Source of the DNA: Catajapyx aquilonaris
Lineage: Eukaryota
DNA length: 64,000 nt
Reading direction: 5' to 3'
Assembly (NCBI GenBank): GCA_000934665.2
Contig: JYFJ02001568.1
Span: 1 to 64,000, forward strand
Below are positions 841 to 61,477 of the stretch, one piece after another. The notes below the pieces were generated by a model. The model saw only the letters and a list, made by a program, of their open reading frames with translations, searched no databases and had not been told where the DNA came from. The position numbers were made by a program, and so were the translations under genes. Positions within the stretch are counted from its first letter, which is position 1. Every line of letters starts with the position of its first letter.

Positions 841-1350
841 GTAGATATAGTATCCTCCAAGAAGCCAGAGACTGAAGAACAGCATGAACAACATGACAAG
901 TCCCATACAAATAAACCATGGAATAAAGTAGCCCCTGCGTTCGTCACGAACTCCTCTGATCATCAGGTACGATGAGAAGATGAAGAAAAACAGGAAAAGG
1001 ATGACAAAGACGCCCACTGGAATCATGGCTGCCAAATAAAAAGAGCAATGTAAATACTGCTGTAAAACAGCTCGCATGCAGCTAACAGCCAACTTACTAG
1101 TCCGGATATCAGTTTCAAAATACGGGAGGTAAAACTGAGACGATTCTCCTCCTGCCACCACATATGCAGTGTATATAATGAGCAGTATGCTGAAACCCTG
1201 TTGACAAAATTACTCGTTATACAGGCACAAATTTAATGCGATGCTTGGTAGAGGCGTAATTACCCCTGTGTAGTAAGCAACGGCCTGGCTGGCTGTGCCC
1301 ACATTGTAGAACCAGTAGCACGGAGACCAGCATTGATCTAGCACAACCAT
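841..1350 (-). CDS. pasi1: Pasiflora-1-like tetraspan septate junction membrane protein (partial; last exon unresolved, probably left of the window)
   Basis: Exons 1350-1264, 1197-1098 and 1028-841 have GT-AG junctions and compatible phases. They translate to MVVLDQCWSPCYWFYNVGTASQAVAYYTG|GFSILLIIYTAYVVAGGESSQFYLPYFETDIRT|TMIPVGVFVILFLFFFIFSSYLMIRGVRDERRGYFIPWFICMGLVMLFMLFFSLWLLGGYYIY|gtaagt. The motifs AGGESSQ.Y.P.FETDIR, RG...PW and SLWL.GGYYIY match Drosophila Pasiflora 1 as I recall it. Confidence 0.75.
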
Positions 1351-27291: not shown

Positions 27292-30200
27292 TCACTCCAG
27301 CTGAGCACTCCCCGGTTCCCCCTCGTGAGATTCGGTAGAGTAGTCTTCGGCCGAATGTACCTCACCGGAAGAAGCAGTCACCTCCATCGAATCCGGCATA
27401 TCAGTCGGTTCCAGCAACAGAGACTCGGCCATCAGCCTCTGGAGTTGCCCTTTCTTCTGCTTCCTCCTCCTGTTCCTCCTCCCGCCATCCTTTCTCCTCC
27501 CCTTGTTCCTCCTCTTGTCCTTCTTCCTCTTCTTGCCTTTACACTTCCTCCCACACTCTTCCTGCTCCTTATAGTCCGGGCTTCTCTCACACTTCCGATG
27601 CCGAGAATGCCGGACTCTGACCATCTCCTCCGGATCAGACCCTTCTCCTCCCAGGATCTGCCTGACAACCTCTTTGTCCACACTTCTGGTCAGGAAGAAG
27701 ATGCTGCTGACCTTCGGCTTCCTGAAGACCTGTCCGGTGTGGTCAGTCGCCGCCACACGCACCCTCCTGCTCTGACCTGTACCGGTCAATGCCAGATACG
27801 ACATCCGCAGACTCGTCGAATACTTCACAGACGAATATGTGTTGTAGCTATTCAGCTGCACATGCTCCTTGAACCTACACTCGTCCGTGAAGTGGTGCTG
27901 GAAAATAAGGCAAAAGGACATCAGTAATCAGGGTGCTGATGGACAACACGCAAAAATATATGCAGTCGGACGAAATTTGGGCGAAATTGTACTGATTTTT
28001 TTTTTGGGCGTACCGGTACAAAATTCGGACGAAACTAAACAGTGGACGAAACATATTTGGGCAGAATTATTCCAGATGGGGCCAACCCTGTGCATGAACA
28101 TGCAAGGCACGTGCTGCCACCTGCCTTGAAATATAGTGAATGAAAAAAGCGTGAAATATGAAAAGTCGGACAGAATGAAACGTCCTGGAGGGTGGTCTTC
28201 AGCTCATATGTTTTACAAAATGTGTTATGATTTTTCTTGCTGAATATTGTGTCTTTGATTCGCCCAGACGAGCCATACCGGTGCCTAAACCCTTCCCAAA
28301 CAGGCCGTAAATCTCAAGTCATGAGGAATTTCTTCGCAGCTCAACTTTCTTGGACACGGTTCAGAATCGAACCGAGGCCCACCCACATGGCCAAGGCACG
28401 CGACCAACTAGACATAAACTTATGCGCTTTTAAAAACTCTCAAAATTTATACGGCCAATTTAAAACTGCTGGTGACTTACAACACCTGGTGCACGAGAAG
28501 TCGTAAAACCGGCGGGGTTTGTGCATACAAATGTAGGTCAATGTGGAACATGCATCAACATATTATATGACGGTAATCTCTTTTCTTCATGTGCCAGACA
28601 TTCAATTTGGATTCCTTGTGCCCTCCGGTCCGATGTAAATTGGGTGGGGTCATGCTGAATCAAAAAGGTGACGTGGACACACCCCCATGTCTCCCCAACA
28701 AAACGAAGGGCACGGCAGGGATAAAATATTTAAGTTAATTGGTCACCAACTGACCTCAAAAATTCAGAATATTATATTAAGGAATGTAGCTCATACTTAA
28801 TATCCGCAGCTAATTTATTCGCTTATTTAGTGCACACCTTTGACACATTGTATTGTCCTGAACTCCTGAACAATACAAGTCAGGTAACGTCTGATCATGT
28901 GAAATCGCCTGAAGCCATCGGTCCATGGGAAAATATCCCAATTTTGGGTCATTAATTGCCCATTTCTGCCCCCACCATCCGCCTATAGGCATCCAATGAA
29001 TAGCCTGTCCAAATAGTTTGTCCACCGAAAAGACCGATCCCTCTCCTGCATCCATTGTGCAGGTGAGAGTGTGCTGAAAGGGACCTCAGCACATAAAAGA
29101 TATGGAAAAAAAAGGAGGCGGAACTTTTTGTGTGGTTCAAAACAGCCCCATTTGCAATTCAAGAAAAAATGCTGGGGGATGATCCCCTTTTTCTGGTGTG
29201 GGAACCACCAGTCAGGTGTTTTGAATTTTTGGAGGAGTTTCCTTCGCACCTTTTCTATTCCGTCCCTCTGTTGGTCAGGACGTGAGAAAGTCGACGATAT
29301 TCTCATGGACTTACCGCGGCATACACTGTACCTCTGCGGTTCATACAGAGGTACAGACAGCTGGCCAGTCCTTCAATCTTCACCTCTCCGTAGCTCACAG
29401 CCGTCCTCAGTAACACGGCTGCAAATACAACAAAAAAAGTGTTAAACACAAAAAAATAATTAAAAATTGTAATGAAGCTTAAATGAGGCTATGTCCACAT
29501 CGTTGGTCCGAAATAACGCGATTTTTGGCATCCTTTGTATCAACTATCGGGTGTCGCAAATGGGATTTTCATGCTCGACTTTTCCTGCATATTTGGATGG
29601 GTGTGGTCCCCTCCTTTTATTTTTTGTGTTTATATTCCACCACATTGACACTCTAGATATGCAGCCATTTAGGAGGTTGATCATTAGAGCCGCTAAAAAC
29701 CTTAAGTTATTGTGCCTTCACTGCTCAAACAGTGGCCGTATATCATTGGCAGGGATCTGAAACCCCCCCCTTCGAAAGCTGGGTAATGAGAATGGGAAGG
29801 TCCATATTTGGTGTGAACCACCAAAAGTATCGCGCCATCTAGGAGTCTCAAACGGACGTGGAAATGGCTGGAATTATACCCTTAACTTTCTCCGTGTGTT
29901 AAGACACAAATATACACACCAGTAAACTGGAGTGTATATTTGTGCTGAATTATGCCCGTAAATGGTGGGGCCATATGTTACGAACGACATTTACTGGTGC
30001 AAGATCCGGTTTTTTACCAATAGAGTCATAACGGTCATATTGCGAAATGAAACATGAATGTTACACGTTTTCGCACTTGGCCCGTACTTTCAAAAGAAGC
30101 TGCGAATTGATATCACAAAATTGGCGTCTCTTTGTCGCCTATATCTGGCTGACTGGATACACCCTTGTTGTGTCACTTTTTAAGGGCTTCATTGTTCCGG

Positions 30201-36200: not shown

Positions 36201-38220
36201 TTCCCTGGCTGTCGCCAAAATTATTGCTGGCATTACTGCCAATTCTATTAAGACACCGGGGGGGACCAGTCTCGCAGTGGGGGATGGGCGCTATAAAAGG
36301 ACTTATCTACAAAGTGGGTCAGAATTACAACTTTTTTTAAGCATGGAAATGTCCTTTAAAGGAAATGTTCTAGTCAACTTGCTGCAACAGCTGTACTGTT
36401 TTTGTGTCCGGTGATAAATGCCAAACCGCCAGGTTTTTATCTCAATTCCAGAGAAAACCACGCACGGCAGAGGTGTCTAGTAAAAATTCTTGGAATGTGT
36501 ACACTTAATAAGCAAAAAATATATATTACAGTGACATCAGTCAAAAAACTGCCGGAAAATATCATCACCTAATATGGATGCCCCATAGATTTGATCCGAC
36601 CTGAACTGACCACAGTTAATCTTATCCTGGCATGTTCCATGAAATTCAACTGCACGCGATGTTAAAGCCACATGCTTTCGGTTTCTCACTTTAAAAAAAA
36701 TTTAAGGACCAATTACCGGTTTTACGATCCGGAAGTTCAGTCTCTGTTTCCCCCACCTTAGAACATATTTTTTGGAGGAAGTCCGCACCTTTCGGAAATC
36801 ACTAGTGACACCAGCGCAGTCTGGAAGCATTTTTTTTTTTGAAGAGGGACGTCCCACATGATTATGTCCCACTAAAAATGGCAGTGAAGTGAACCAGACG
36901 AGCATTTTTTTTCGACTAATGCATATTCTCAACGGCACCTGCCATCAACCTCAAAAAAGTCCCCCCTCTTCTCAATTTGAATGGCGGGGTCGTGATTCAC
37001 ACAGCAGGAGTCAGAACGAGCCTGTTCCGATATAAGAGTTATATTAAAAAAAACTATTTAAAAAAAAAGTTGGCGATGACATTTGTCATTTGTCTTCATC
37101 CGGTCGTGTCACTTTATGTCAATAATGTGCCGGGTATAAACACCACGGGGTTGCTTATCCAATAATAGCCACGCCGGGCTATCAAATAAAATTGTTTCGT
37201 AAAATATGACCAGTGAAATTTCGCTCGTTGAATATTTTAAAGGCAACAATTACTATGAAAAGCTGCATATTTGAGCGAAAACTATATTTCCACCGGAAAA
37301 TATCTTTGGACCAAAAAACATATCCCAAAACATTTTGGAATTTCAAAGCAACCCTTTCTGGACTGGTTTCCCTATCTCCTTAAATCATCAAGAGTGCTCC
37401 CCCCAAAATGATGTCGCAACAAATTAACACCTCCATCTGATTTGGTGGGGTCCACGAGAGAAAAGGGGATAAACATCCGGAGCCCCTCCCACGAGTATAT
37501 AAAAATTTTCTGAACGTGATTTATGTGACACCCTATATTCTTCAGGTTTGGCACTACCGTTTTGTTATGGTGCCTCCAGCCGCAATTTTTGGCTCATAGT
37601 GACGCAATAAAAAAATTATATTACCGCGCCCTCTCTGCTCTATGCAAATGTAAAATATTCGTCCAGACCTTCAGCAGCTTTTATGTACTATAAATTATGC
37701 TCAGCATGATGATGTTCATCATGTGGTTCGGTTAATTTATGGCGGAGACAATACACACGGGGGAACCACTGTTTTTGTTTATTTACTGTCTGGTTTGACC
37801 TCTGCAATACCGTCATACTGTATATGAACTATGATGGGAGAACTTACCATAAGTGCTGTTCCTGTCCGTGGTACCGTTGACGGTACCGTCCGGAAGTATC
37901 TGCAGATGATTTCCATGCTTCCCGAAGAGCATACAAGTCTTGCTGGATCCAACCTGCTGGGACAAGTTGGTTCCTCTGAAGGCCCTGTCACCAATCCCAG
38001 CTCTGTTTTCGGCCACCACATCGTCGAACTTTCCCTGTTGGTGCTGGATGGTCGTAGGTCGCCTTCCTTTGGTCAGCTTGGTCAGCATCCCATGACTCGA
38101 CATCTGGGTCAGGTCCGTTTTCAGCTCGAAGGCCATTGTCCCTCTTCCTCCGGACACTACCACCATTGTCGTCACAATCACTAAGAAGAGGAGCCCCCAA
38201 GGGCATAGGGCACAATGCAT
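27292..38220 (-). CDS. bnl: Fibroblast growth factor, Branchless-like, with signal peptide and basic C-terminal tail (about 360 aa)
   Basis: Three exons: 38220-37848 (phase 1), 29418-29315 (104 nt, the canonical FGF exon-2 size) and 27897-27292. Core: HLQILPDGTVNGTTDRNSTY|AVLLRTAVSYGEVKIEGLASCLYLCMNRRGTVYAA|HHFTDECRFKEHVQLNSYNTYSSVKYSTSLRMSYLALTGTGQSRRV. The N-terminus is hydrophobic (WGLLFLVIVTTMVVVSG). CLYLCM and YLAL.G.GQ.RR are Branchless-like. FGF identity is secure; the subfamily label is less so. Confidence 0.88.
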
Positions 38221-40649
38221 GACGGGTCGAGACTGTCCTCTCTACCGGCCCCCACCCAGACCCGGGGTCACTCCGGGCCTGGGTCACCACAGATTGCCAA
38301 GATCAATTTCTGACCCTTCCTTCTAGAGACATTGTCACAGGGTCACTCGCGCACTTGTACACTGAGCACACCATCACTGCTGAAACATTTTGGATGAAAC
38401 ATTAATATCACACAACATGACAATTCCGTTGTAATTATTGTTAACTTGGAAATTTTTTTGATAACAGTACTTACCTGATTGGAACATGTGGACAGCAGTA
38501 TTCTCCATGGCGAGGTCCATGAGGGGACTGATTCCTCTTTGCCAACTTGGTCCCACTGACTGTGCCGCCACCGCACAGCCGCGAGAGGACTCTGCCCGCA
38601 TTTTTTTTTTCTTCTTCTTCTTCTCTCTTCGTTTCAGCCCCTCCTGCCCCTTGCACCCTTCTCAAGGGCCAAATGGAAGCAGAGAGCCAGCGACCACTCG
38701 GCCAGGGGCGGGCAATCAAGGTGGATGGTTGCCCGCAAGGGAATCGCATTCTCCATGCTATCCTCCTAACAATGTTCACACTTTCGATGGGGAGGGTCAT
38801 TTCAGAAAGTGGTTTCGTATTATTTCGTGTCATAAAAATTTCGGGTTAAGTATATGCTATATGACAGTTAGCGGCTGGCAGTAAAGCGGCCGTTGTGCGA
38901 ATTTTTTCAAATAAAAAAAATAAATTAATAATAATAAAAAGTGGTCGACTTGGCTCAAACAACAAGACACTTGGTCACGGTTCACCCTTTTAAGAATGAT
39001 GTAACAGTAGCACGTGTGTGCAAAACATATCTGCAAGGACACTGACCTTCAGCACACAAATTGGGCCTGATCATTCTGCAGAAAATGGATTATGCAAATT
39101 CAAGCTGCAGCCGGTGGAGGTCCACGCCCAATTTGCGATGTGCATAATACATGAAGGCTGCAGCAGCAGGAGCGGTACATACTGAGAACGGCAATGTCTG
39201 GTGTCATCTGTTCCGGAGGAGTGGACCGTGACAATTGCGACATAAACCAGGGGAGAGCGCAGACAATGCGTGTTGACACCTGCTGTCTCGTATTATTTGC
39301 AAGCGATGCGTGACTTTTCAACGAATCACTGCTTGTAAATTGAGTTTCGGGATCGTCCCCCAGTATAAACATTGTCATCAAAATGTTGTGCTTTTTCTGC
39401 TAACCGAGCACCGCCTGCTGCTCCAGACTGTACCGCCTGGTCTCACCCGCGTAATGAACTAATTAAGTATTCGGTTAATGAATGTTCTCCCAGGGGAGAC
39501 AGCAAAAGTGCATTCCCTGATTACATCTCTCATAACTGCAGGGTAAGTGCACTGAGCTCCAGATGTCACTTCTCAAGAAATCCTCAACTATATCAGTCGT
39601 AACCTCTGCCAGGAAATGTGAATGTATTCTATGCTATATGTAGTGCGAAAACGACTCTAGAATAAAGCTTGAGGCAGGTCAACGACATAGATGCTAAAAA
39701 CTACTTGGGTGCAGTCCAGGTAAAGGAGTAGCAAAGATGGACCGCTAGACCTGTTGTCTCTAGGCGTCTAATTGTGCAAAAACACCGCACAAAAAGGGTA
39801 TTAGCCACCATGACACTCTAAGGACACTTAAGATGGTGCTTGCTATAAACAATAATAACTTCCGCACAATGCTTTTCCACGCTTTCGTTCCGCTATTGTA
39901 CCCAAACCAAGACCAAGTCACGTCAAGTACAAAGGTCTCAGAGCAGGGCAATCACATTTGCGATGGACATGGCGACCGGGGAAGATATTCGCATTTTATG
40001 GTCTAACAAGCGGCCTGTGAGTGACAGTTTACATGACAACTGGTTTTGAAAGCCAAAGCAGCCCCACTTCACCTGTATTCCCGTCCCTCACTTGGTCGAG
40101 TGTCTTTTTTCACAACAAACGATGAAAAGATTGCGCCAAAAAAAACCGGATTTGCAAAAGGCAATCCAGCAGATAAGGGTATTTAGACGACACGTTACAC
40201 GTTCAGACTAATGGTAACGGTGTGAAAAAAAAAGTGTGGTACGTGACTAGGGAAAATGTGAACCCCCAGGGCCAACCTTGCCCTCACTTGAGAAAGGCCC
40301 GCGGTTCGAAACTGAATTTATTCAAACCTATCCTCATTCTGTCCCGTAATAATATGTGTCCACATGAAACCGCGCAGGAAGAACCATACTGATGTGTCAC
40401 AACAGCCTGTGAGTTTGGTGAGGTTGGCATGTCCCTCACATTCGTTGGGTTGGGCCCGGTCCAGAGTAGGACCTAAGCCAGAAGTGTGACATTTTCTCTA
40501 TTACCCTTCCAGACAAAACGAGCTAAATATACTGCCAGTAGTTGTTGAGCTGAACGACAGACAACTCTTCCCAACTCCAAATTGAAACGTGCTAACAACC
40601 AGCGACCTTATCAGGGACGAACACTAGCCGCACTAACAGCAGCAACAAG

Positions 40650-43194: not shown

Positions 43195-46100
43195 GTAATA
43201 ATAATAATAATAATATACCGTCTGGCGTCGCTATCGCTCCAGTGATACCAATCCCGAATTTAGTGCCAATGGATGGGGTTGCCAAGCGCCGAAGGCGCGC
43301 AATGGGGGAGAAGCCCAACAGCCCAGTGCTAATAGCCATATGCCTAATTTTAATAGCTACACTAAAAATTTGAAATGCGTATGAGCCTACACACTATGGT
43401 TACATTTTTAAGGCCTAATGTAATTTTGTTTATTTTAATAATTATGTCAAATTTTGTAGATACAAGTGGCAACCGGGTTAGGAATGCGTGGACCTTACAT
43501 GTTATGCCACCAACCCGCACGCTCCTAGCTTGCGCGATGCTCCGGGTACTTTATTACAAGGAAAGGCCGTAACCGCCTTGATTATAATAATTTTTTGGAG
43601 GGCCCCCACCTTCTCGATCTTGCCGATTTGGAAGGAATGTTTTTTTTTCTTTTCTTTTCTTTTCTTTTCTTCCTTGTTGGATTGCCGTCAAAGTGGGCCG
43701 AATTCCTTTGATTCCTCTCAGCATGCGAGTTATTTACAATGCGGCCGATTTCATGACAGATATACCAAAAAATAATCTTAAGATCGTGTGCTCGAAATTC
43801 TTGGGTAAGAGTGAGGGAAAAAAATGTTCATGGCCAGTAGGTCAAATTTAGTGATATTGCCACGAATTTTTTTTTTCCAATAATTATTCACATCACTGTG
43901 ACGCCTTATGAACTTCTAACGCTGGACGAAATTTTGAAATGACTGATGTGAACAAGTGTGGTATGCTAATGAGCTGTAAGTTAAAATAGACGCTATTGTA
44001 TCTATAGGAATTCCAGCTAAGGTGCACGACCCCATGTCTCCAATGAGCTCACCTGCCCGATATTGGGTTGCGACAGTCATAGAAATGGACAACAATGTGA
44101 CTGACTCCAGACGCAATATCTTAAGGGAAGAACTTTTGGCTCGACTTTCAACAGATTACAATCAGAGGATCGTAAAAGCATCCAGGAAAAGATGAATTCC
44201 CCTTTTGGGGATTGCTTCTCTGAAGCACCCTATTCTTTTTTTCTCTCTCTCGAATCGGAATCTTCTTCATCCAACCGACGAATAAAACCCGGATTCAAAC
44301 CCGGACCCCGGTTGAGATGTCTTATTTAGTTATTTTGTGAGTTCAAAGTCAGTCCCCCCCCCCTTTCTACCCCCCCCAAAAAAGTACCCTGGCTGAAGAA
44401 AGGAATGCGGCGGAATGATTGGGATCAGACCACCATGTAGAGAAAAAGAACCTTTAAAAAAAATGTTTCCAAAGGAGGTGTGCATCATCTTTTTGGGGGG
44501 GGGGCGCCGCCCCTGAGGGGGTTTTTTCCTTATTTTTTCTTATAACCTGGGCGGTTAGACGTCTTTAGAAAAAGGGGGAGAAAAAAAAAAAATCTATTTT
44601 TCAAATTAGGTTATTTGGGCCAGGCGGCTGTGGACGTCAAAGGTAACCAGTGCATTTTTTAAAGATATAGCTCAGAATTTTTTTTGAGGAACCAATGCAT
44701 AACTCTAGCTACAGGCACTCACGCGAAGGGACTGCCCAATTGACCTTTGAGGGGGGTTTTTGAAGTAAAGTGCCCTCAACGTGCAATTGACCTCCAAAAG
44801 TGGACACAAAAGCCAGTTTTTGGAATTTACAGACGGGGTGTCATGCTGTCAGCAACGGACAGTTTTCAGGGGGGGTTGTCTTCTCATAAAGTGTGTGCCG
44901 CTCTAGACCCCGATTTCACCACCACAATTTGTACGGTGAATTGTCCACACCAGCAACCCCAGTCCTTCCGTGGTGGTCTCCCCTTGCATTTCGGCGGCGC
45001 CTTTAGCAGTAAATTTATCCTCAGACGCCCTGCTTGGGGGGGCTTGACACCAAGTGATGAATGCTCCTTGTCCTTCCTCAGGAATCCATCTTTTACAGAA
45101 AAAAAAACTAGTAGGGGGGGGGAAAAGATGTTAACTCAATTTCTGTTGAAGGATATACGAGACACTGGCGCCACGTGACACTTTCGACCATTGAAATCGC
45201 CATATTTGACGCTGGAATTTTTCATTCTTTTCAAATTATTTAGGGTGGTCCTTTCCGTTCAAGGACGACCTTGTTTGTGGTCATGACGGACGCCATCTTT
45301 GATAGGTGACTTTCGACGCTTCACCTGGGGTTACACGCTTTTGTGATGTTTATTTCCCAGGGGCGGTTGGGTAGGCACCAAGCAGGAGGGGGGTTCTTCA
45401 GCTGCCTCCAGGTGCAGATGGCCCCCAGAAAAAGTTCCTTATTCAACCTTCCAGCCTAAATACCTACCCACCTACTGATTTACTAGAGACCCGCCGTTCT
45501 GTACAAAGGAGAGCGCGTGCTGGGGGTTTTCCGCCTTTATTGCACCGCTTTTATTGGCCAGATTTTCCCATCCAACCACGACGGGATAAACAAAAATTTG
45601 TCCACTAACTAGTTGGACCATATCTGGAAATCTGGCACGAAAAATGCGGAAAATATGGCCATGTAGCAGACCTGAAATTTTTTTCAGATCTGCTACCTTA
45701 CTCCAGTATATGAACTGTAATTGCCACGACCTGACACTAATAGGAATAACAGTTCACCTAAATCCGCTTGGACAACAAATAAAATCCGACAAAGGACAGG
45801 AAGGACCACCCTGGTGGAGGATTAGTCCATTGACGGATTTTGGGGACATATTTTCTGGAATCCGCTTTTCGTGTGAATGGATTGCTGACAACCACTGCCA
45901 TCCCTTTTTTTGAAACAGGATGACGATTTGATGAAGGCGGTGAAGTTGACGTCTCGTGAGCGACGGTTCATCAAGTTTGCGTCGGTGGAATATGACGGAC
46001 AGATATACATGACACCACAGGATTTTCTGGAGAGCGTCGTCGAAGCTGAACCTAGACGTATGTTCAAATTTTTTTTTAAAGTATATCCATAGTGTAAAGT

Positions 46101-49100
46101 GACACAACTGTTTATTACAACAGCGAGACTAAAGAGACGCCTGCTGAACGACGCAGATCTGGAAAAAATAAAGGACTACACGCCATCAATGCGACGTGGT
46201 ACACCACAAATGTTCCGCAACCTGAGAGACAGAGGTATGGCCATACTCTCTGAACACTATAACATGTTTTTTTTTTAAACATATATATTTTCAGGCATTA
46301 TTTCCTACACGGAATATCTCTTCCTCCTGTCCATTTTGACACGTAAGTACCTCAAGTTCTGGAAAGTCGTGACCGTATACATGTAAATCCCGTAATTTAT
46401 GGTTCAGGTCCCCAATCCGGATTTCGCATCGCGTTCAACATGTTCGACACCGATGGCAACGAAAGAGTGGACAAGAAGGAATTTCTTGTGGTAAGCCAAT
46501 CAATTTTAAGGGTGAATCGCGACCAGACGCCCCCATTTATGGACTTGTTATTCATCACTTGAGGAGGTCAACAAGCAAGCAAAACATAGCCTTTAAAATC
46601 GATTATGTGCAGTCGTCGAATTTCGCCCTTGAACTTGAATCCGCTATTTTGGGACGTCTTAAACAGCATGTTTTTAATTGCGCGAAACTTTTTTTGACAT
46701 GCAAATTACACGTTGCGGATTTGGCAGCATGTGGGCAGAGGTCCCCTCCCGATTTGCCGGTTGCCCTTTTTTGGAAGGGAGGGTCATTATTGCGAATACG
46801 TGATGGGAATGTTGGTGATCGCATTAACGGTGGTTTTTTGTTATCTGTGGGTAGATAGATCTTTGTTATTTATAGATTCGGCAGCTGATGGCCGGAGTTC
46901 TGAAGAAGATGATGGACGAGTCCCACGACCCACTCACGAGAAAGGCTGTGAGTTTTGAGTACTGGGTGTTTCGTAATTGGACGGCCGGAAGTGCGCCGAT
47001 TTTATGTTGGAAAATGTAAAATGACGATGAGGACACAATCGCACCTTTTAATAATTGCGGTAATGACTGTTAAAAAAACCCATGTCGTAAAGAAGTAACT
47101 GTGTGAATGAGTTTGTGGTACACCACATGTGAGAAAAGCGTGTGGTGCATTTTAAGTAAAATATACACAGCAGTATTTTGCGAAGAAATCTTCAAAATCA
47201 TTAAATTATAGCAGTACAGCGCAATGAAAAAAGGAGATGCTAAAGCTCACGTAAGAAAAAGAAGTGGTTGTGTGAATAGGCCTTTAAACATGGTATGTAA
47301 CAATGAATAACAATAATTACAAATTGCTTATTATGTAGCTACATGATAATTAAGATGCTTTTCACATATATGGTGGCCACATATCGTCACTCTACAGTCT
47401 TCATTTTTCCGGCACTTAGCCTTGTGGTCGTGCAATTATGAAACGCCTCTGTAAAAGAAGCCTGTGGCGTCCGAGTCCGATGTGCACCATTCATCGCAAT
47501 ACCTTGTGTGCATAACCGTCACTTGCTGTTAACCCAGTGATGTTTCAGGCCAGGGGGGTCCGACCTTGACTCAATCCGTGATTCCAGGCGGAAATTCCGC
47601 TTCAGGGTCGGACACCTCGGTTGCAGCAGCCCGACATGTTCAGTGTCTCCTGCTGACCACTTTCTCGTTGCAGAGTGTCCTAAATGTCTTTCTGTGTTTT
47701 AGCTGCGGCGCCTCATCAGAGTGTCCGAGTTGCAAAAGATCGGCAAGCAGAACAAGGTTGTTTTGGTTTTTGGTTACTAATTGAGATGCTGGCGTGACGT
47801 GCTTGGGTGTGCCATGTTACAAGTTTGTTATTTTTTTGGGCGGCTAACAGTTGTTTTGAAAGTGTGCGGAATGACACTGAAAAATGCTAATCCTGATTTT
47901 TATGGTGCCATCTCACGGGTGAGAACGCTATTCCAAGAACCTTCAAACATGGTTCCTTGCCCATAACTCCTGCTGGACACACGGAACGGGATGGACAAAA
48001 AGCTGCATTTTTCTGTGTTGGGAATGACCTTTAAAAAAAGGCTATGAAATCCCCCAGTTGATTGTTCCTTCCCATGCAAAGTACCGTTTCCCATTTTACA
48101 ACCATTTAAATCACTGAATCTATGTCATTAATTTTGTGGCTTTTGCTTACCTTTCAGACGCGTGTTCCATGATAGTCACCTAACGAAGCATGGCCGGGGA
48201 AATAATTGTGCCCCTATTTTCAGCTGGAGAAAATATTCAGCAATGCCTGGAAGGACAAAAGGGGCTTGGTGCCAAAACCAGATGGGAAGGATGGCGAAGA
48301 AGGTGATGATAAGCCAGGTGAGCCACCAGCAGAAGGGGAGGACAACACTCCAGAAGAAGAAGATTACGTGGATGATGAGCAAGGCTTGCAAAGACGTCAT
48401 GTCGTGGACACTACTCTGCTGGTCCACTTTTTTGGCAAGAGAGGCAGGCATGAACTGCGCTACGAAGATTTCCGGCGGTTCATGGAGAACCTGCAAACTG
48501 AGGTCCTGGAATTGGAATTTTTTGAGTTTTCAAAGGGACAGCCAACCATTTCGGAGATGGATTTTGCCAAGATCCTCCTCAGATACACATACCTGGATAT
48601 GGATGAGTATGCTGAGAATTTTTCTTATAGCACGTGAAGAGTAACGCTGCGCATGACTTTTGACCATCTCAGAGCATCCTGTATTAATACTACTTCTCTC
48701 AAGGTATGAAATGTATTTGGATCGACTGATGGATCGTATCAAGGAGGAAAAAGGAATCCACTTCCTGGAATTCAAGGCATTTTTCCAGTTTCTGAACAAT
48801 CTGGAGGACTTTTCGATTGCAATGAGAATGTACACTCTGACTGAGAGACCCATATCTCAAGGTAATAGTTCACTTTGTTACCTGCCATATTGCCGTCAAT
48901 GAGTGTTTAATTTATTTATTAAAATGAGGCTAATATCTTCTGAATTGAATTTTGTTCACAGAGGAATTTCAGCGGGCAGTCAAAATTTGCACTGGCACCA
49001 GTCTGAGTGCACATCTGGTCCGGACTGTTTTCCAAATCTTTGATGATGATGGTGATGGTCAGCTGAGCTACAGGGAGTTCATAGCAATCATGAAGGATCG

Positions 49101-49248
49101 ACTTCATCGTGGATTCAAGGTTAGTTTGTAACTTGCAATCAAAATTCAGCAGGAATTTCATCACCGACTTCTCTTTCAGTCGTATGCCAAAAACGAAGGC
49201 TGGGATGCCTTCAAATCATGCGTGAAGCAGGAAATGAAGAGTTTGTAA
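41076..49248 (+). CDS. MICU3: Mitochondrial calcium uptake protein 3 (MICU2/3 family, EF-hand)
   Basis: Exons: 41076-41300, 45919-46057, 46124-46234, 46295-46342, 46408-46490, [46876-46947], [47703-47756], 48224-48606, 48704-48861, 48962-49119, 49180-49248. The N-terminus is an Arg-rich mitochondrial presequence. Motifs: SRERRFIKFASVEYDGQIYMTPQDFLESV, GIISYTEYLFLLSILT, EF-hands FNMFDTDGNERVDKKEF and FQIFDDDGDGQLSYREFIAIMKDRLHRG, and C-terminal FKSCVKQEM. Confidence 0.93.
43139..43215. repeat. (AAT)n microsatellite in MICU3 intron 1
   Basis: AAT run with one AGT interruption. Confidence 0.95.
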
Positions 49249-51410: not shown

Positions 51411-54400
51411 TTAGCATGCCGGTAATGGGCTGCAGTGGGAAAAATCATTATTAATTTATGTTCCCATAGGAACTTAATACTATCATGTTTCTAAGTGGAA
51501 CTTACCTCTGGAAATTAGCTGTAGGTATCGCTACCTTGTGACGTACCATGAAACTTGCAACTACCTCTGCCACCCTCTCTGGTACATCCTCATGAACAGC
51601 ATGACCACATTGAGGTAACACCTGCATCTGGAATTTTCCTGTAAAATTGTCTGCACTCAATTCATCATTGCATAAATTACTCACATCAGTGCCTTTCAAT
51701 GCACGCAGTTCAAGTTAGAAACCATGACCATTAACAGCCTCCAACTGACCTTGCATCTGGCCAACAGTGAGCTCCTTATCCAAGCGGTCGACTCCAGCCA
51801 GCAGTAGCATTTTGGGAATAGGGCAATTGAGGAAGGTGGAGGACAAGCCCTGGAACCAACCGGTCCAGTACTTCTCCGTGCGGGACAGGTCGATTCGCCA
51901 TCCGTAGTTGGCCGCAGTGGCAGTAGGTGGTGCCTTAAATCCACCAGAGCCGTTGCCACCGTTGGCAGCAGCGTCCTCATCCTCCTCAGGAATAGCATCG
52001 CTGGCATGGACAATAGGAGGAGGTGCTGCAGCAGTGGGGGAAATAGTGGCATCTGTCGCATTCGCCCCAATGATTCCGCCATCTGGAGACACTTCACATG
52101 TTGCTGTCATGTCAGTCTCAAGGCTGTTTGTGGGAAATAAGATGATAATTATTAGGCTCTGAAATCAATGACAACATTCACTTTAGGGCACTTCTTTTAA
52201 ATTATCAAGGCTCAAGATTCAGCATCAACAATTATCACACTATATTTACTGTGTGTCAATCCAGACCAGCAAATTCATGAAATATGCATCTGAATCAAGA
52301 ATGATGTTATTACCAAGTCCTGCCAATGTGATAATGTTCTGTCCAACTGTCTTACTCAACTCTGCATCCAACATTCCCCAACTTACTTTTTAATCTGTCC
52401 TGGCATTGATACCCTAGCAGACTCCAGGTTGCGGACTTGACCACTGCGGACGCTGAAATGAGTAATTAAATGAATAAAGCAGCAATGAAGTGCAAATTAT
52501 GAGACACTAATAATAATAATATTATGCTCAAACCATTTTGTCTGAGTTGCGACCGGTTGAGCAGTAATTTTTATTTCAACTACCTGGCATCAAACAACAA
52601 TATCTGAAACTCCTTCACAAAAGCATGAATGGTAAGAGGTTCAGAAGCTCTCGCTAGACTCTAGAGGTAAAATGTTACGGTTTGATTTGGATAAGGACTC
52701 ATGTACTTTGGGAGTTCAATAACTGCAGTGAGGAGAACCAAACGTTGTCATTTTTCAACATATCGTAGTTTCTTTGACACTGACTGTGAGTGCACAGTTA
52801 TGTTCTCTCTCCCCATTTGAAATTGATGCACCCAGATCTTGATTGTGGTGTACAACGTAGCACCATCATCCAATGTCACTCGCATATCCTCAAGAATCTT
52901 TTTCCATGACATCCCCTTTGTGAGGAGGCATTTGTTGGCACCACTTTCACCATGGCAGCACTCACTTAACACCTTGTCTCACTCTTTGTCTTGCAGGACG
53001 AAAATGGAAAATGCAATCCCTGTCATATTTTGAAGTATCACTTACAAAGGATAGGAGTCCCAGTAAGGTGAAGCCAGGCAAAGCACATGAGCCCTTATCC
53101 CAGTGGTTTTAATTTATAAAAATAACCGCGGCCTCTCATGGCCCCCCTGGACCTGCTCCATGGCCCCCCTGGACCTGCTCCATGGCCCCCCTGGACCTGC
53201 TCCATGGCCCCCTTGGGGGGTTGCAACCCCAGGCTGGGAACCACTGCTTATCCAAATCAACCCTTCATATTACAGTATGCCTGTAGTTTTAAAACCTACG
53301 ATGAACGCATCATCATACAGACATAGCATAAATTACCTAATTAAGTTAATAAATTAATTTATATAGCAACTGCCTTTTCTAAATATCTCATCCAAGTTAT
53401 GAATAAATGCTACATAAATCAAAGGGTGAATATGTAATGGAATAAAATATTGCACATCAATTTTCACATTCAGTAAGGCAATTTTGCTTGGGTCATGGAC
53501 ACTGAACCTATTATTATTAGTCACTACAGCTGGTAGGCACAGTATTCCCAATCCAGACACACACAATTGACCATCTGAGTGTGTCAGCAAGAAGGAAATT
53601 TTCTGGACCAAACAAAAGAACACAAACCTGTAGTACCAAAATAATTCCTCCATTATCATATGTAATCAGACAGTCAGTGTATGTTGCTGGGATGGCAGTG
53701 TTGTGTCGACTAACCAATAGTGGCCCCAGTAAAATTCCTTAGCGCTGTGTAAATGCCTCCAATAAGTATGATCTCACCCATTCTTGCTCTTGCCTGAGCA
53801 AATGCAAGTGGGTATCCAAGTGGCAAGTGGCAAGCAAGTGGGCAACCAACAGTGAAAGGTAGACACTGGGTAGACATTCATTACATTCAGATCTTTCAAC
53901 TTCTGTAAAAGAGATTGGTCCCAGACTGTTGGTATATTCAATTGCTACAATGCCACATCAGGGTGCCAGCATTTGTAAAGAGTGACCAATGATGCTAGGC
54001 ACGGTTCTTTTGCATAAGCATGGTACTGTGATTATGGAATAAGTATAATACATCTTACTTATTGAAGCACTGTCACATGCATGAATGTAGAAGGGTACAA
54101 GAGAGCTAGTTAGACTGACCACCACTCAATTGCATGGGGAATGGAATGGAACTGCTTGGGCCTGCTCCTGAGGAAACTCTGCATACTCGCCAGGGCGTCC
54201 ATGGCAGTCCCCTCCACCACATCAATTACCGTCAGGCCAATGAGCGAGGGCATCAGGCCTTCACAAGCCACATGCACTGCTATGGCCCCACCCATGCTGT
54301 GCCCCACCAGGATTGTTGGGGGAGGTGACTCACCATACACCTCCGCCACCACTGATCCCACATCTCTGAAGATTTAAAAAGTGAACTCAGTTAGTACCTG

Positions 54401-56499
54401 CTCCTGTGGCTGCAGAGTGACAAAAGTACTGTAATTAAGACCCTTTAGGCATAATGAAGTCGCCTCCAGATATGAAACGTCAAGGACCACGGAAATTAGT
54501 ATCCTATAACGGAGGTTTACTGAATCCAAATGCACAGGCCATAATTATGTGAAGTATGCCGAGACCAGCCTTTTGAGTTAGATATGACCAAGGGTTACTT
54601 ATACTCAAGGCTCTTACAAGTTAGGTACACCTTAGATTGCAATGCAGTCTACTTGGTGATAATGTATTATTGAAACACTTTTTAATGCCCAAAAAATCTT
54701 GACATGCTGGACACAACCAGCTTCCCGAACTAACAACTGTGCTTGTACCATGATTAATTATTTTCACATGAGAGTGAGATTGCACCTCACCAACTTGTAC
54801 TGATACAACACCTCTAGAATTCAACTCTGCCACTTGCTATGCACCAACTGACTTGCCACAACAATTCTACTCTGAATGCATCAGGTTTCAAAATTTTTGT
54901 ATTCAATAGCTTGCCATTCACCTTGAGAGAACTTCCTCTGACATATCTTCCTCATCAACGCATCGAGTGTCGCCATGCCCCCTCAGGTCCATTGCCAAAA
55001 CCTGGCATTCCACCAGGCCAGTCACATGCTCCTGAAATTGAGGGTGAATTAGAAATACAATAAATTTAGCAATGGTGTTCACCAGTAACAACACAATTAT
55101 TAAAGCAGAAAAAAACAGGCAAAGGTCAGCAATAGGTCACATGTACTGTAGCCTACTACTCACAAAACACACTAAAGTAAATAAACAGTGCAACTGACTG
55201 TGAAGAGGGACCAGGTGAGTGCGTTGAATCCGCCTCCATGGAGCAAAACCAATGCTGGTCCTGCAGTTCCTTTCTGGTAGATTTTGAACGAATCGGGTCC
55301 TATAGTCACGTCACAACTCCGGTCATAGTACTTGCTCCAGTGAAGAGGTGTGTACTCGCGCCGTCTGCCAAAGCTTCCCCGCCGGCTCCCACTGTAAATT
55401 ACAGCACAATCATAAGGTCACCAAATTACGACAAGATCATAATTATTAACAGCAGACCTTCCATTACAAGTCACCTCAAATTTAATTTAGGTGAAGTATC
55501 GCACACATTTTTCATAAGCAATTACAATGATACACAATCTTCATAAGAAAAAAGATGACAGACCGCAACAATAGCATGCTTATAACTTCCATATGATCTT
55601 GTGACAGCATTGTATCCCCCTGTTACGTCCACATCAGTGTATCACCCTACCTACATGCACCGTGACACCCCCTACTTCCCATTGCTAAGAAACGCTGTGC
55701 TTTCATTGTTATCAATTCACATTGTTCCAGCTCCAACCCTGGAAAAGGGTAGCCAATACAGTTACATTATCAGCCCCAAAGTTTCACAATTGGACACTAA
55801 CTCCTCTGCGGCAGCTGCTGAGTTTAGCAAATCTCTCGTCGTCATTCAAGAATTTGTAACAATGAAAAATGTCGATCTGGACCACGATCTTATCGCTTTG
55901 TGCCACCTTCGAGACAGTTCAGGAAATTGTCCAATTGCCAGTTACTGCGATGCTAAGTTAGCAGTACCATTGCCAACATTGATACTTCTAAGTAAGCAGT
56001 ACCATTGCCGACACTGACACTGCTAAGTTAGCAGTAACTAGCAGTGGGACTAAAATTTCACCCAGTGGTTCTAACCTCAAAAGACAGTTTCCAAATGCAT
56101 TCAACTGGATCGAGAGTCAGTTGCATGCAGCTGTCATTGTCATACTACGGCAGAAGCGGCTACCACACGTAAAGGCAACGAGCGCTTACCACTACTGATA
56201 CGCATCAATTACAAGTACAGTCCTCCATCCTTACCACCAGCAACTGCCTTAGAGCACTCAAAAAAGGCCTTCCACTCATGTGTGACTTCCACTCAAGAGT
56301 GTCTCATTCCCTCAACATAAACCGCCCATTTGATCAGTGTGCCCCCTCAATGAAACCAAGCCTCGACCGTCTCCTCGACTCCCTGAGTATCCCAGGACCG
56401 TGCCGGTGCCCCATGAGGCCCTCACCCTGCAGGCGGCAGTCCCAAGGGTCCGACGGGAGGCAGCTTGGACTTGAGAAGATTCTTTTCCAAGGCGGACAT
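51411..56499 (-). CDS. PPME1: Protein phosphatase methylesterase 1 (PP2A demethylase, alpha/beta hydrolase)
   Basis: Exons: 56499-56426, 55391-55199, 55031-54922, 54365-54120, 52452-52387, 52123-51750, 51638-51506, 51429-51411. Motifs: MSALEKNLLKSKLPP, YTPLHWSKYY, LLHGGG, MDLRGHG, nucleophile elbow GHSMGG, IDVVEGTAMDAL, RNLESARVSMPGQ, LLLAGVDRLDKELTVGQMQGKFQMQVLPQCGHAVHED, C-terminal PAC*. Confidence 0.96.
52676..53269 (-). mobile_element. Internally deleted mariner-like element (degenerate TIRs, transposase N-terminal HTH relic) in a PPME1 intron
   Basis: The minus ORF 52972-52748 contains LLTKGMSWKKILEDMRVTLDDGATLYTTIKIWVHQFQMGRENI, a mariner/SETMAR-type N-terminal HTH pattern. Sequence 52676-52710 (TACGGTTTGATTTGGATAAGGACTCATGTACTTTG) is an inverted copy of CAAAGCACATGAGCCCTTATCC[insert]AAATCAACCCTTCATA at 53079-53269. 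Confidence 0.75.
53101..53246. mobile_element. hAT-type MITE (146 bp) with internal 22-bp tandem repeat, inserted in the mariner TIR
   Basis: Ends are CAGTGGTT...AACCACTG, flanked by the direct repeat CTTATCC (53094-53100 and 53247-53253). The internal unit CATGGCCCCCCTGGACCTGCTC occurs about 3.5 times (53137-53212). Confidence 0.8.
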
Positions 56500-57337
56500 C
56501 TTTGAACCGCGTTCGGACCCACGCTCATCAGAACCGACCTTTTTTTGATCACAACAGCGATACGAACGCACCAAAACAACAGTAACCAGGTAACAATACG
56601 AAATATTTTTTTAAACAAATCATCCGAAAATACAAGTAGAGTACGGCAGAGTGTACCGGATTTCCACAGATGCACAGGACAGCCAAGTAGTAACCGCGAT
56701 AAGGTGACAATGGTGGGGAGGACAAAGAATTAAGTGTGTCTTACCAGACCACGGTGATGGCATTGGACATGACTTTTGGCCACTTGGTTTGGGCAGAGCT
56801 TCCCGACAAACTACTGACATGCTACGATATATTGATTAACTTACGCCCATTAACCCTGCAGGGGATATGGCCTAAGGGCAATTGATGGACGCATGGCATA
56901 TGTATATTGGGAGGGGAAGGCTTAATTGCTACTGTAATTACTAACCGATTATTTTTGGAGTGAAGGTCAGTGGGCTGGGATGTCTAGTGTCATCCTGCAC
57001 TTCAGATGCTGTCCGCAAAGCTATAAAGTGACAACTAAAGGGGGTAATAACACTCTAATGCTAATTAATCTGATTTCAAACCTTCATAAATATTTATCCG
57101 CAAAGAAACAAGAGGCCAAAAATATTAATTAAAGTTTCGGGGATTTGTGACTATCTCTTCCCGAAGAAATATTGTTATGCAAAATCATTCATGTCATATT
57201 TTCAGTTTGAACTTTTCGTTCTTTTCAGCTTCAGTTTTCAATAATTGTACTTGGTACAGTACATTGCAACGTTTGAAGTCAGAGTGATTGAATAATTCGC
57301 AGAAACACCATTGCGATTTAATTTTTCAGGCTTCATC

Positions 57338-58849
57338 ATGAGTAGCACACGTGACTCTATCACTTCCACGGAGTCCACAAATTTGGGTCTATTGAACTGG
57401 CTGTTATCAGCATTGCATATCAGTATGTCACCACATTTTTGGCATCTTACAATAAGTAGATGTGTCATTATTGCATTGCTTCTTGCAGAAAGGTCCAAGC
57501 CGAAAGTGAGAAGAAATCTTCATGATTTTCTCGGTACTGGGTTATTGGGCGATGGTGGACTTGACATACCTGACAAGCTCTTTGAAAAGATTGTTGGACC
57601 AGGCGCCGCAACTGATCCGAGGAGGTCTGAGAGCGACTACAATAAATCCGAAGGAACCACACAAAGTTCCGTAGATATTTCCAGTCTTTCGGACATGAGC
57701 AGAAAGACAACCTTTTATATGCCAGTAGTCAAAAAGGTTATTGGTAACATTAGCATTGAAATCAACGTTAAAGCAGTTAATGACTCTTGGTTTTTACTCA
57801 CAGAATTTCACTATGGATTGGACAGGAAGGTACCGAAGTCCTGGGCCAGATTGCACGTCCTTTCAGCGGTACACTGAGATTATTCGTGCTAAAGACGAAA
57901 TAGAGGAGGAAGAGATGCACAAGTACGGCCTGACATTGGGATATGAATTATTATGCATTGATTTCCTGTAGAATTTATAGGAGTTCCATCACATTATTTA
58001 GTTCCTGCAAATGCCATTGACTCGCTGATTTTTTGTTTGTTTTTTAGACTGAAAGCTCGCTCTTTGATCCCGGCACCAGCTGAAGGATATTTTCAGGATT
58101 GGCTACCACAGCAACACGATGGAGAACCTGTAAGTCATTGTCTCCTTTTGCACTTCAGTTCGTATCCCGGCTTGGGAAATGGTCAAGTCAACAATCATCT
58201 GGCTATACTTACTATAGTAGTCCATTGCAACAATGCAACAAAGGAAGTAACCTATATTTCAGCTGAAGCGTCGTATGAGGCGATTCTCCGCGATCTATCG
58301 CGCAGCTGCAAAGAGGAAATCACGCCAGCACAAGACAAAAGGTGATAGCAAGGACCACGAAGAAGTGGAGGAGTACAGCGACTCTGACATCCCGCGACGC
58401 ACGTCGATCTTAGACGACGAACCCATCGAGAAGCTAATTGAAGATGTCACGCACCCAGCAATCTTTCGAGGAATTGGGATGTCCCAGGTGAGATTGAACA
58501 CGAAACTTAACCTAACCTAGACCGGGTCTTGAAAATAACCCCTGACATGACCTTTGACACAACCAGCTTCTTTTATTGACAGAATCACCACACTGACAAA
58601 CTGATCCACCTGAAGAAGGTAGCAGAAGACAAAGAACACTTTGCGTTCTTACGCGACTTCGACGTGGCCCTGTCTGAAGACGTGCCGATTCCAGCCATGA
58701 CACAGGTTTGCAAGGAATGCATACCAGTACTGGAGTCTGTTGTGTCGTACTACAAGAGAAACTTTGGCTCAGATCATCGTGTAACTCTCGAGGCGATGAC
58801 CCGCCTTGAGGTTATCCAGGAGGAACTGGATGATTTGAAATCGTGTTAA
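57338..58849 (+). CDS. Uncharacterised 329-aa protein with CatSper-zeta (TEX40)-like C-terminal helical motif
   Basis: Exons 57338-57386, 57489-57736, 57804-57922, 58048-58129, 58263-58487 and 58583-58849 have GT-AG junctions and consistent phases, totalling 990 nt. The first intron is 102 nt, stop-free and has a weak donor, so it may be retained. The protein ends SEDVPIPAMTQVCKECIPVLESVVSYYKRNFGSDHRVTLEAMTRLEVIQEELDDLKSC*. The gene model is well supported; the product label is tentative. Confidence 0.75.
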
Positions 58850-61477
58850 CATGCTGACTGTGATTTGAATTATATCATTAGACCATCACTGTTTGAACAC
58901 TGTCAAAATGACATTTTTTTGTAGTACATCCCAGATCATATCCTTGTGCCACAAGTGACTTACTTGTGTGCTATGTTACGGATAGCCCAAGGAGGAAATG
59001 GGTTTCCATTGACCAAGCACAAGTTCCGCTTATCGAGCGAGTTCAAGCTCCGGATGTGATATTTGGCCCCACAGTTACATTTCCTGCCAAATAAGCAGCA
59101 AGAGATGTGCAGTGTGTGTACAGATCGGCAAGTTGAATGAACATTTCAACGATAAATATTCATAAACTGTATAGCTAACTGTAGCTATAGGGTCGACGTT
59201 AAAAAAAACCATTCGATTCAATTTTCTCTGGAATCAACCTTGCTATCACACTGTTGTCTCCAGATAAGATCATCTCAACAATCTATCATTTCGCAGAAGT
59301 TATATCCCATGAATCAGATGAAGAAATGAACGCAATATAATGCATATCCATCTGTCGGTTTTATTCGCATAGTTAGACAACCGTAAGAACATCACATGAA
59401 TTGGACGTGTATTTTTTGCTCCTTTTTATGAAAGAAGTAGACTGCTGGGAGGGTGCAAGGTATCTTTTAGTTACGCCCCAGAGAGCGTGACTTATGTTGG
59501 GGGCTGTTGGGTGCCGGCGTCATTTCATGTTGGTTGATGCGGCGCCAACTTCTGCAGACTATTGCAAAAGGAACCTGAAACTACCAGACCATGTTTGATG
59601 GCCTCCTACCACGAAAAGGTACACGAGGCCTGAATGGTGGCCGATGTGAAAAATGGCGGCCAACTTCTGACAGATATAAGCTCTTCCTGTTTGCATAACC
59701 AGTTATCATTTTTGCGGTTTTCCTACCGCGGTTGACACAAGCTGGTTTTTTTTTTACAGAATGCTACCGTGGCCATTAGTCTGGTCCTGCTTAGTTACCT
59801 GCTAATGTACTGTTGACACACGAGTAGTTGCTGCCAGTAAAACTGCGCAGTGTACAACACACTTCATGTTGTTTTCAGTCAGTTTTAATTATTCACACTG
59901 AGAGTTTCATAGCTTTTTCTTTTTAGTAAAACTTCATGGTTGAACCGAACTAATGTTGCGGCGAAAAATGGCGAAAATAATATTACTGATCACAAATTGT
60001 GAATGTGCAGTACATTTGTGTGTATTTTCTCTGGACAATCAGTTGCGCACCATATATGAGTGGTCAAGAGGTCACTTGAGGTGAAGAGCATTAACACTGC
60101 TATGTGTAGCAAGGGATGCACGCTCTGGTGGCCTGAAGGCTTCCAGATAACGAGGAAGGTGTTAATGGGGGAACCCTATAGAACCGTCTATGGAACACTG
60201 GTCATGCTTCATCCTGGTAATTCAGGAAGAGATTTTTGGGGCCACCAACATAAAGCTATTTTAAAACCGCTTTTAAGAGAAAGTGTGTATGTACCACACA
60301 CACAGATAGGGCCACTCAGAGAAAGCCATGCCCCGAACCCTATTGGCACTCTAATCACGAACCAACATGACCATGTATGGTGGCGGCTTCACCACATACT
60401 AACATTACCTACCGAGATGGAATCGCAGGGTTTGTGGCCCCGTTTTCTACCCCTTTTCCCACCCTAGTTTGGCTCTATCAGAGGCGTAGGCGAAATATTC
60501 GCGCATCTGCGAAGGTGACATGCAGCAACCTCGTGTGACGTCATTTCAGAGGAATTCACGCACTGACCTTGGTGTACTTGCATCAACGACCGCACAATCG
60601 CACATTGGCACTGGTGCGTCTTAATAGTCATACAGGGTGGCAAATAACTGAATTCAAGCACCGGTTTGGCCCAGGGTGTGGACTATTAACGGGTAATTTT
60701 TTTTGGCGTGAAAACCTTCGTGCGAAACGTGTCTAATTTTTGCGAACACGACCTCATTTGACAGCAGGAAATTTGGCCAATGTACCACCCTGTCTGAAAT
60801 TTTTTTTTCTTCGGTCAATCTCATAACGATAATGGCCTGCCGTTTATGACCAACCATAACTTGACACCTGTTCTAAAAAGCGGCGATACGAGTCGATTGC
60901 GGTCGTTACGCAAAAGGTACTGGTAACTGTAGGTGTAAATAAATGACGTACCGGCGAATTATGATCAGCCCGCAGGCAATTGCCAATCATGCAAACTAAC
61001 GGCTTCGTTATTTTCGCGACAGCTACTTGGCATCCTTGACCCAAATGGCCGTGTTTGGGAGTCCCAGGTTTCGGGGACTTCAGGCTTTCACCGTTCATTT
61101 TATCCCGTCTTTTAGGAGCCTTCAGGACACCAGCCCTAACCCTACACCACATCTGGTTCCCAATTTAGCGAATCATGCCGGAAGGTATCAGATGGCAACT
61201 AAGGCAACATCTGTCTAACAGCACTTCCCCAGAAATTATTTGTGTACTTACAGGATGGTGACGATTGTAAAAAAAATGTCCCATACAAATCCTCTTCAAA
61301 AGGTACTATATTGACCACCTGCGGAGTTCCTCAGATTGTCTTTCTCAACCTCCAGTGGAGTGTTCCACATTCAGGGATGGACATGACTTTCTAGGAACAT
61401 TTATTATGACGACGTACGGCGCCTTCCCTATTGTCATAGCCAGACCCAAATGTGGCAAAAATTACATATTTTTGTTC

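Follow-up and report, generated by a model that had tools for sequence, protein, structure and literature searches.

We analysed a 64,000-nucleotide stretch of Catajapyx aquilonaris DNA (positions 1 to 64,000 of contig JYFJ02001568.1, assembly GCA_000934665.2; hereafter the window), in which an earlier note had proposed a gene related to zeta, a subunit of the sperm channel CatSper. The CatSper-zeta-like gene lies at 57338-58849 on the plus strand and its six-exon organisation agreed with that proposal, all five introns being of the GT-AG type and the spliced frame being open over 341 codons followed by a stop. The exons and the motif that suggested the relationship to zeta are the following:

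57338-57422, plus strand: exon 1, 85 nucleotides; ATG at 57338 opening the reading frame, GT donor at 57423
57489-57736, plus strand: exon 2, 248 nucleotides; Ser/Thr- and charge-rich, with AG acceptor and GT donor and no Pfam family match at E ≤ 10
57804-57922, plus strand: exon 3, 119 nucleotides; AG/GT boundaries, frame preserved, no Pfam match at E ≤ 10
58048-58129, plus strand: exon 4, 82 nucleotides; AG/GT boundaries, frame preserved, no Pfam match at E ≤ 10
58263-58487, plus strand: exon 5, 225 nucleotides; AG/GT boundaries, basic and then acidic, its 3′ end opening the region conserved with hemichordate and annelid relatives
58583-58849, plus strand: exon 6, 88 codons plus TAA; open frame encoding the conserved C-terminal domain
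58682-58816, plus strand: zeta-like motif of 45 residues (exon-6 residues 34-78); hydrophobic-P-hydrophobic-P start, helix, G-x-D-H turn and helix

The 341-residue protein contains 31 Ser, 29 Asp, 28 Glu, 26 Arg and 26 Lys residues, in keeping with the charged, Ser-rich composition described in the earlier note, and the C-terminal motif quoted there was indeed located in the last exon. Across all exons, no Pfam family reached its cut-off. A tblastn search revealed no second copy of the spliced gene model within the window, no tandem repeats were detected in the 56000-60000 region around the gene and the whole window gave no Rfam matches. Intron 1 (57423-57488, plus strand) is 66 nucleotides long, stop-free and in frame, so that a transcript retaining it would gain 22 residues instead of encoding a truncated protein.

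Exon 6 was searched against a library of approximately 1.84 billion representative proteins, which produced 207 matches at E ≤ 0.001, the best 150 of which were listed. Two of them came from other animal lineages and ended in the same way as the Catajapyx protein. The first (P0024) was an uncharacterised protein of 379 residues from the hemichordate Ptychodera flava (E = 2.9e-9, 40% identity), in which residues 295-372 aligned with exon-6 residues 5-82. The second (P0122) was the hypothetical protein LSAT2_014690 from the annelid tubeworm Lamellibrachia satsuma (235 residues, E = 8.7e-5), in which residues 157-230 aligned with exon-6 residues 10-83. Among the matches listed, each of these proteins presented one matching stretch, which covered most of exon 6 and was placed at its own C-terminus. 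Over the different alignments, exon 6 was 37-40% identical to the Ptychodera protein and 27-32% identical to the Lamellibrachia protein. The three proteins have a common layout, a disordered N-terminus followed by a conserved C-terminus, while their lengths differ (379 and 235 residues versus 341) and neither relative has an annotated function. When aligned over their full length, conservation was confined to the last ~95 residues and the upstream parts could not be aligned. The alignment with both relatives crossed the exon 5/6 junction without gaps, which supports the splice model. Because exon 6 matches the Ptychodera protein at such an E value and the similarity spans this junction ungapped, the zeta-like gene is real, beyond chance, as judged by sequence conservation.

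The C-terminal alignment of the three proteins (A1) contained 14 invariant columns. From it we derived a profile and two leave-one-out versions, A2 without the Ptychodera protein and A3 without the Catajapyx sequence. A profile built from the Catajapyx and annelid sequences still scored the Ptychodera protein at 67.9 bits, and the three proteins can therefore be securely considered homologous to one another on the basis of their sequences. We also performed word-based searches, which rely on 5-residue words in common and have limited power for a zeta-like family. With exon 6 against longer proteins, none of the 74 candidates reached E ≤ 0.01; the C-terminus of the Ptychodera protein recovered only itself, and profile A1 recovered only the Lamellibrachia and Ptychodera proteins among 1,595 candidates.

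The link to CatSper zeta came from searching these profiles with hmmsearch against 177,635 distinct PDB sequences. With profile A1, mouse CatSper zeta ranked first (chain 9ubw_K, 149 residues; E = 1.2e-5, 28.6 bits) and second (chain 7eeb_K, 194 residues; E = 1.5e-5, 28.2 bits). The bias was 0.0 for the zeta chains and the first non-zeta match appeared only at E = 0.092. Mouse zeta also ranked first when the Catajapyx sequence was left out (A3; E = 2.5e-5, 27.5 bits, next match at 0.075), when the Ptychodera protein was left out (A2; E = 0.0023, 21.2 bits, next match at 0.2), and when either relative was used alone, both for the Ptychodera protein (E = 0.018, with three sequences in all at E ≤ 10) and for the Lamellibrachia protein (E = 0.11, 15.1 bits). 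Adding the Catajapyx sequence raised the zeta score in both comparisons, from 15.1 bits for the Lamellibrachia protein alone to 21.2 bits for A2 and from 27.5 bits for A3 to 28.6 bits for A1.

The alignment between profile A1 and zeta was ungapped and ran from profile positions 31-87 to zeta residues 127-183, at the C-terminal end of zeta. The match thus occupies the C-terminal end in all four proteins, which contain no known domain elsewhere, in line with the terminal position given in the earlier note. The 45-residue motif aligned without gaps to residues 137-181 of 7eeb_K with 12 out of 45 identities, counted by hand, the same number that the earlier note had given for the human protein. 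Ten of the columns invariant in the three non-mammalian sequences fall within the aligned range, and in seven of them mouse zeta carries the identical residue. Mouse zeta (7eeb_K/9lwo and 9ubw_K/9ubx) is therefore alike in its ungapped last ~57 residues, with the hydrophobic-P-hydrophobic-P start, the two helices and a G-x-(D/N)-H turn in the same C-terminal position. No other domain is recognisable, and the N-terminal parts of the two proteins are unrelated. Zeta sequences are described as variable and devoid of conserved domains in statements from two papers (10.1101/459487; PMC5362262), a description that also suits the Catajapyx protein. As in zeta, the protein is small, lacks known domains and carries a conserved helical part at its C-terminus, though at 341 residues it is longer than mouse zeta. 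In a separate observation, the sequence I-R-K-W was present in both the Ptychodera (~284-287) and Lamellibrachia (~143-146) proteins, approximately 40 residues upstream of the proline motif, and missing in the Catajapyx protein. HMMER placed it on an I-R-K-Y of mouse zeta located much further upstream, with a negative score, and this coincidence is probably due to chance.

The structure predicted by AlphaFold2 from alignment A1 contained four helices at exon-6 residues 4-15, 17-29, 36-61 and 66-87, the last two forming a hairpin with its turn at G-S-D-H. Per-residue confidence (pLDDT) was 87-91 for residues 41-80 and under 50 in residues 1-20, with a mean of 72.6. Fold comparisons were uninformative, since a two-helix hairpin resembles many others and does not discriminate among them. 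Foldseek yielded no PDB match at E ≤ 0.001 (best E = 0.44), and VIA-align over 48,161 chains returned generic helical proteins (Z ≤ 8.6), with no zeta chain among the best 50.

Taken together, the three-sequence profile, its leave-one-out versions and each relative alone bear out the claim that the C-terminal motif is related to zeta, and we consider homology between the C-terminal domain and CatSper zeta very likely. Several results weigh against reading the gene as a zeta ortholog. Significant similarity to a known zeta was found at the profile level, but not with exon 6 alone: its PDB search listed 13 sequences at E ≤ 10, from which zeta was absent, and 11 of the 13, including the best ones, were coiled-coil fragments of NEMO (E = 0.04-0.13). 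In the large library, the best matches of exon 6 were multi-repeat TPR_10/TPR_12 proteins. The profile link is built on three sequences, and the stretch aligned to zeta comprises ~57 residues with 13 out of 57 identities (hand count). Exon 5 had no PDB match at E ≤ 10, and nothing thus suggests that the resemblance to zeta extends upstream. The N-terminal ~250 residues are unconserved even among the three non-mammalian proteins, and the Catajapyx protein has 341 residues compared with 194 in mouse zeta. Finally, the source table of Fig. 3 in PMC12638846 shows Daphnia, Tigriopus and Ixodes without any CatSper gene.

The strongest competitor, which we nevertheless regard as unlikely, is that the gene encodes a stand-alone protein with one kinesin-light-chain-type TPR unit, a generic helical adaptor unrelated to CatSper whose likeness to zeta would amount to a common arrangement of helix, G-x-x-H turn and helix. 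Exon-6 residues ~44-86 do resemble one repeat of this type (TPR_12/TPR_10), with the pattern F-G-x-(D/E)-H-x-x-T-L-x-A-M. In the large-library search, 146 of the 150 listed matches carried at least three G-x-x-H-x-x-T motifs and covered these residues in between 2 and 13 stretches; P0001 has a TPR_10/TPR_12 array, while P0078, a match with few such motifs, was an unrelated, internally repetitive protein. In addition, TPR_12 was the only structural Pfam family near notice for exon 6 (E = 0.16), and the ESM Atlas leads for this exon were TPR_12-flavoured, with scores of 0.77-0.83. However, kinesin-light-chain TPRs form repeat arrays, whereas the Catajapyx protein has a single unit that scored 12.7 bits against the TPR_12 cut-off of 30.1, and it does not qualify as a TPR_12/TPR_10 member. 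Neither relative showed a TPR family in Pfam at E ≤ 10, and TPR chains were missing at E ≤ 10 from the lists of profiles A1, A2 and A3, even though the PDB library includes TPR structures of kinesin light chain. We also scored individual repeat units from 148 TPR-type and other non-ortholog proteins among the listed exon-6 matches, a set picked for its likeness to exon 6, so that the comparison favours the TPR explanation. Even so, the best single unit obtained 19.1 (A1) and 11.3 bits (A3), compared to 27.7 and 26.0 bits for the zeta domain. Moreover, the zeta match takes in the proline motif and the first helix of the hairpin, upstream of the TPR-like part. The earlier note had pointed to a best match with a generic kinesin-light-chain TPR as one part of the outcome that would speak against zeta; this was what the single-sequence search gave, being dominated by TPR proteins, but not what the profiles gave, since they ranked zeta first. 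At the level of sequence profiles, the C-terminal domain is therefore to be placed with CatSper zeta and not with generic TPR repeats, and the interpretation in the earlier note is supported in large part, though not in full.

Regarding function, mouse zeta is a soluble subunit, and the module that it forms with EFCAB9 and ARMH2 beneath the CatSper pore adjusts how the channel opens and maintains unbroken rows of channels. According to statements in 10.1101/459487, EFCAB9 is a direct binding partner of mouse zeta, their complex depends on Ca2+ and becomes looser as the pH goes from 6.0 to 8.5, and loss of the zeta-EFCAB9 pair eliminates most of the pH-dependent activation of the channel. A passage in PMC12638846 describes zeta, EFCAB9 and ARMH2 as a ternary cytosolic subcomplex adjoining the channel subunits. 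We propose that the Catajapyx gene is probably a non-mammalian ortholog of CatSper zeta (CATSPERZ/TEX40), whose C-terminal helical hairpin would dock the Ca2+/pH sensor EFCAB9. The conserved C-terminal ~60-95 residues, which end in the two-helix hairpin, may act as the docking element for EFCAB9/ARMH2, because this is the only part of zeta common to the three non-mammalian proteins. The poorly conserved, Ser- and charge-rich N-terminal ~250 residues might constitute a lineage-specific linker or regulatory tail. Docking would take place as in the mouse, in the sperm flagella of Catajapyx aquilonaris, with the protein serving as the zeta subunit of its CatSper.

Another possibility, rather improbable, is a true zeta homolog acting independently of the channel: CatSper would have been lost from the animal, as it has from many arthropods, while the gene was retained for a different function, perhaps alongside another EF-hand protein as its partner. 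The empty CatSper rows of several arthropods (Daphnia, Tigriopus and Ixodes) in the PMC12638846 table would fit such a history, and so would the far greater length of the protein relative to mouse zeta and its lineage-specific N-terminal part. On the other hand, both relatives come from lineages reported to have CatSper genes: CatSper1 is listed for Lamellibrachia satsuma in Table 1 of PMC13674862, and CatSper2, CatSper3, EFCAB9 and the beta, epsilon and gamma subunits are listed for the hemichordate Saccoglossus in the source table of Fig. 3 of PMC12638846, a phyletic fit that also favours the ortholog reading. Moreover, nothing assigns the Catajapyx sequence to a lineage devoid of CatSper. 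In the same source table, the springtails Folsomia and Orchesella and the horseshoe crab Limulus carry CatSper genes. As CatSper is present in some arthropods and absent in others, an arthropod source fits either a channel subunit or a channel-independent protein.

It is very improbable that exon 6 instead encodes a NEMO/optineurin-type ubiquitin-binding coiled coil (UBAN-like) acting in ubiquitin signalling, since the NEMO fragments that head its PDB list, although they align with exon-6 residues 38-86 through a common V-L ... Y-K-x-x-F stretch, all come from one protein and are not significant, NEMO did not appear at E ≤ 10 in any of the three profile searches or in either single-relative search, the sequence does not qualify as a UBAN, the model is a hairpin and not a long continuous coiled coil, and the residues that matter for ubiquitin binding, an acidic one preceding the Phe and a Glu-Arg pair following it, are replaced by Asn and Asp-His in the Catajapyx protein.

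The zeta reading has to be set against what has been published on the distribution of this subunit. Statements in earlier papers describe zeta as "only present in mammals" (PMC5362262) and as a "recent addition" to mammals (10.1101/459487), and a passage in PMC10652287 reports that it was not found in Ciona. One Methods sentence of a 2025 paper on ARMH2 (PMC12638846) states that non-mammalian zeta sequences, missed by BLAST, were found by a hidden Markov model (HMM) search. In the orthology-database table behind Fig. 3 of that paper, the zeta column is empty for amphioxus, acorn worm, sea urchin, springtail, Lingula and sea anemone. A full-text literature search for non-mammalian zeta found by HMM returned PMC12638846 alone. 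The mammal-specific distribution that the earlier note took as established thus agrees with the statements of the 2017-2023 papers, that zeta is found in mammals only or is absent from Ciona, and does not agree with the 2025 Methods sentence. Zeta outside mammals is therefore already in print in brief, and hemichordates, annelids and arthropods may be covered by that sentence.

To place the gene in its genomic context, Pfam scans were applied to 137 of the 156 open reading frames (ORFs) of at least 88 residues in the window, leaving out 14 that overlap ORF 2997-6419 and 5 of the zeta-like gene, and to 150 of the 273 ORFs of 40-87 residues. The neighbouring features were:

754-1209, minus strand: ORF scoring just below threshold for DUF4728 and DUF7027 (25.7 and 24.6 bits, with cut-offs of 26.7 and 27)
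2997-6419, plus strand: single open frame of 1,141 codons, located where the window is richest in GC (0.53-0.57), upstream of the WD40 exons
19720-20133 and 20359-20661, plus strand: ARHGEF10/17-type WD40 (PF19056) exons (E = 2.2e-20 and 3.1e-5)
27295-27927 and 37816-38241, minus strand: FGF-family exons ~10 kb apart (E = 8.4e-10 and 5.7e-5), the middle exon not being located
43585-43827, minus strand: NAA35-like TPR ORF, sub-threshold (22.9 bits, with a cut-off of 27)
46347-46559 and 48949-49128, plus strand: EF-hand exons of a gene for mitochondrial calcium uptake that resembles MICU2/MICU3 (E = 2.9e-13 and 2.1e-21 against human MICU3)
54113-54373, minus strand: exon of PPME1, protein phosphatase methylesterase 1 (alpha/beta-hydrolase; human PME-1 matched at E = 7e-33), on the opposite strand from the zeta-like gene and ~3 kb upstream of it

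ORF 2997-6419 had no Pfam match at E ≤ 1e-4 and its ESM Atlas leads did not exceed 0.85, with Arthropoda as the most frequent taxon in three of the six leads listed, a weak signal; the ORF may represent a long disordered N-terminal exon of the ARHGEF10/17-type gene. The EF-hand gene located 8-11 kb upstream of the zeta-like gene was examined because an EF-hand neighbour could have been EFCAB9, a candidacy that was rejected in view of the matches to MICU3. Both neighbours invoked by the earlier note as synteny, PPME1 and an ARHGEF10/17-type gene, were present in the window. Human CATSPERZ, PPME1, ARHGEF17 and the FGF3/4/19 cluster would all be located on 11q13, and if these positions are correct the FGF gene adds to what is a weak synteny argument.

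Altogether, we lean towards the view that CatSper zeta is an ancient bilaterian subunit and not a mammalian invention, a fast-evolving protein whose C-terminal hairpin is conserved in Catajapyx, a hemichordate and an annelid. What this adds is limited, as PMC12638846 already states that non-mammalian zeta was found by HMM. If this view is true, the Ca2+/pH gating module formed by zeta and EFCAB9 (and ARMH2) would be older than internal fertilisation, and the idea of zeta as an adaptation to the mammalian female tract, which statements in the 2017-2023 papers build on a mammal-only zeta, would need revision. If, in addition, the source is an arthropod, the gene would mark an arthropod lineage that retains CatSper. 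If zeta can be recognised in a hemichordate, an annelid and this genome, proteins annotated as "hypothetical" would receive a name, and such diverse zeta sequences would help to show which hairpin residues are important. The EFCAB9-zeta pH/Ca2+ switch would also become open to study in animals with external fertilisation, for instance sea urchins, in which CatSper is likewise opened by alkalinisation.

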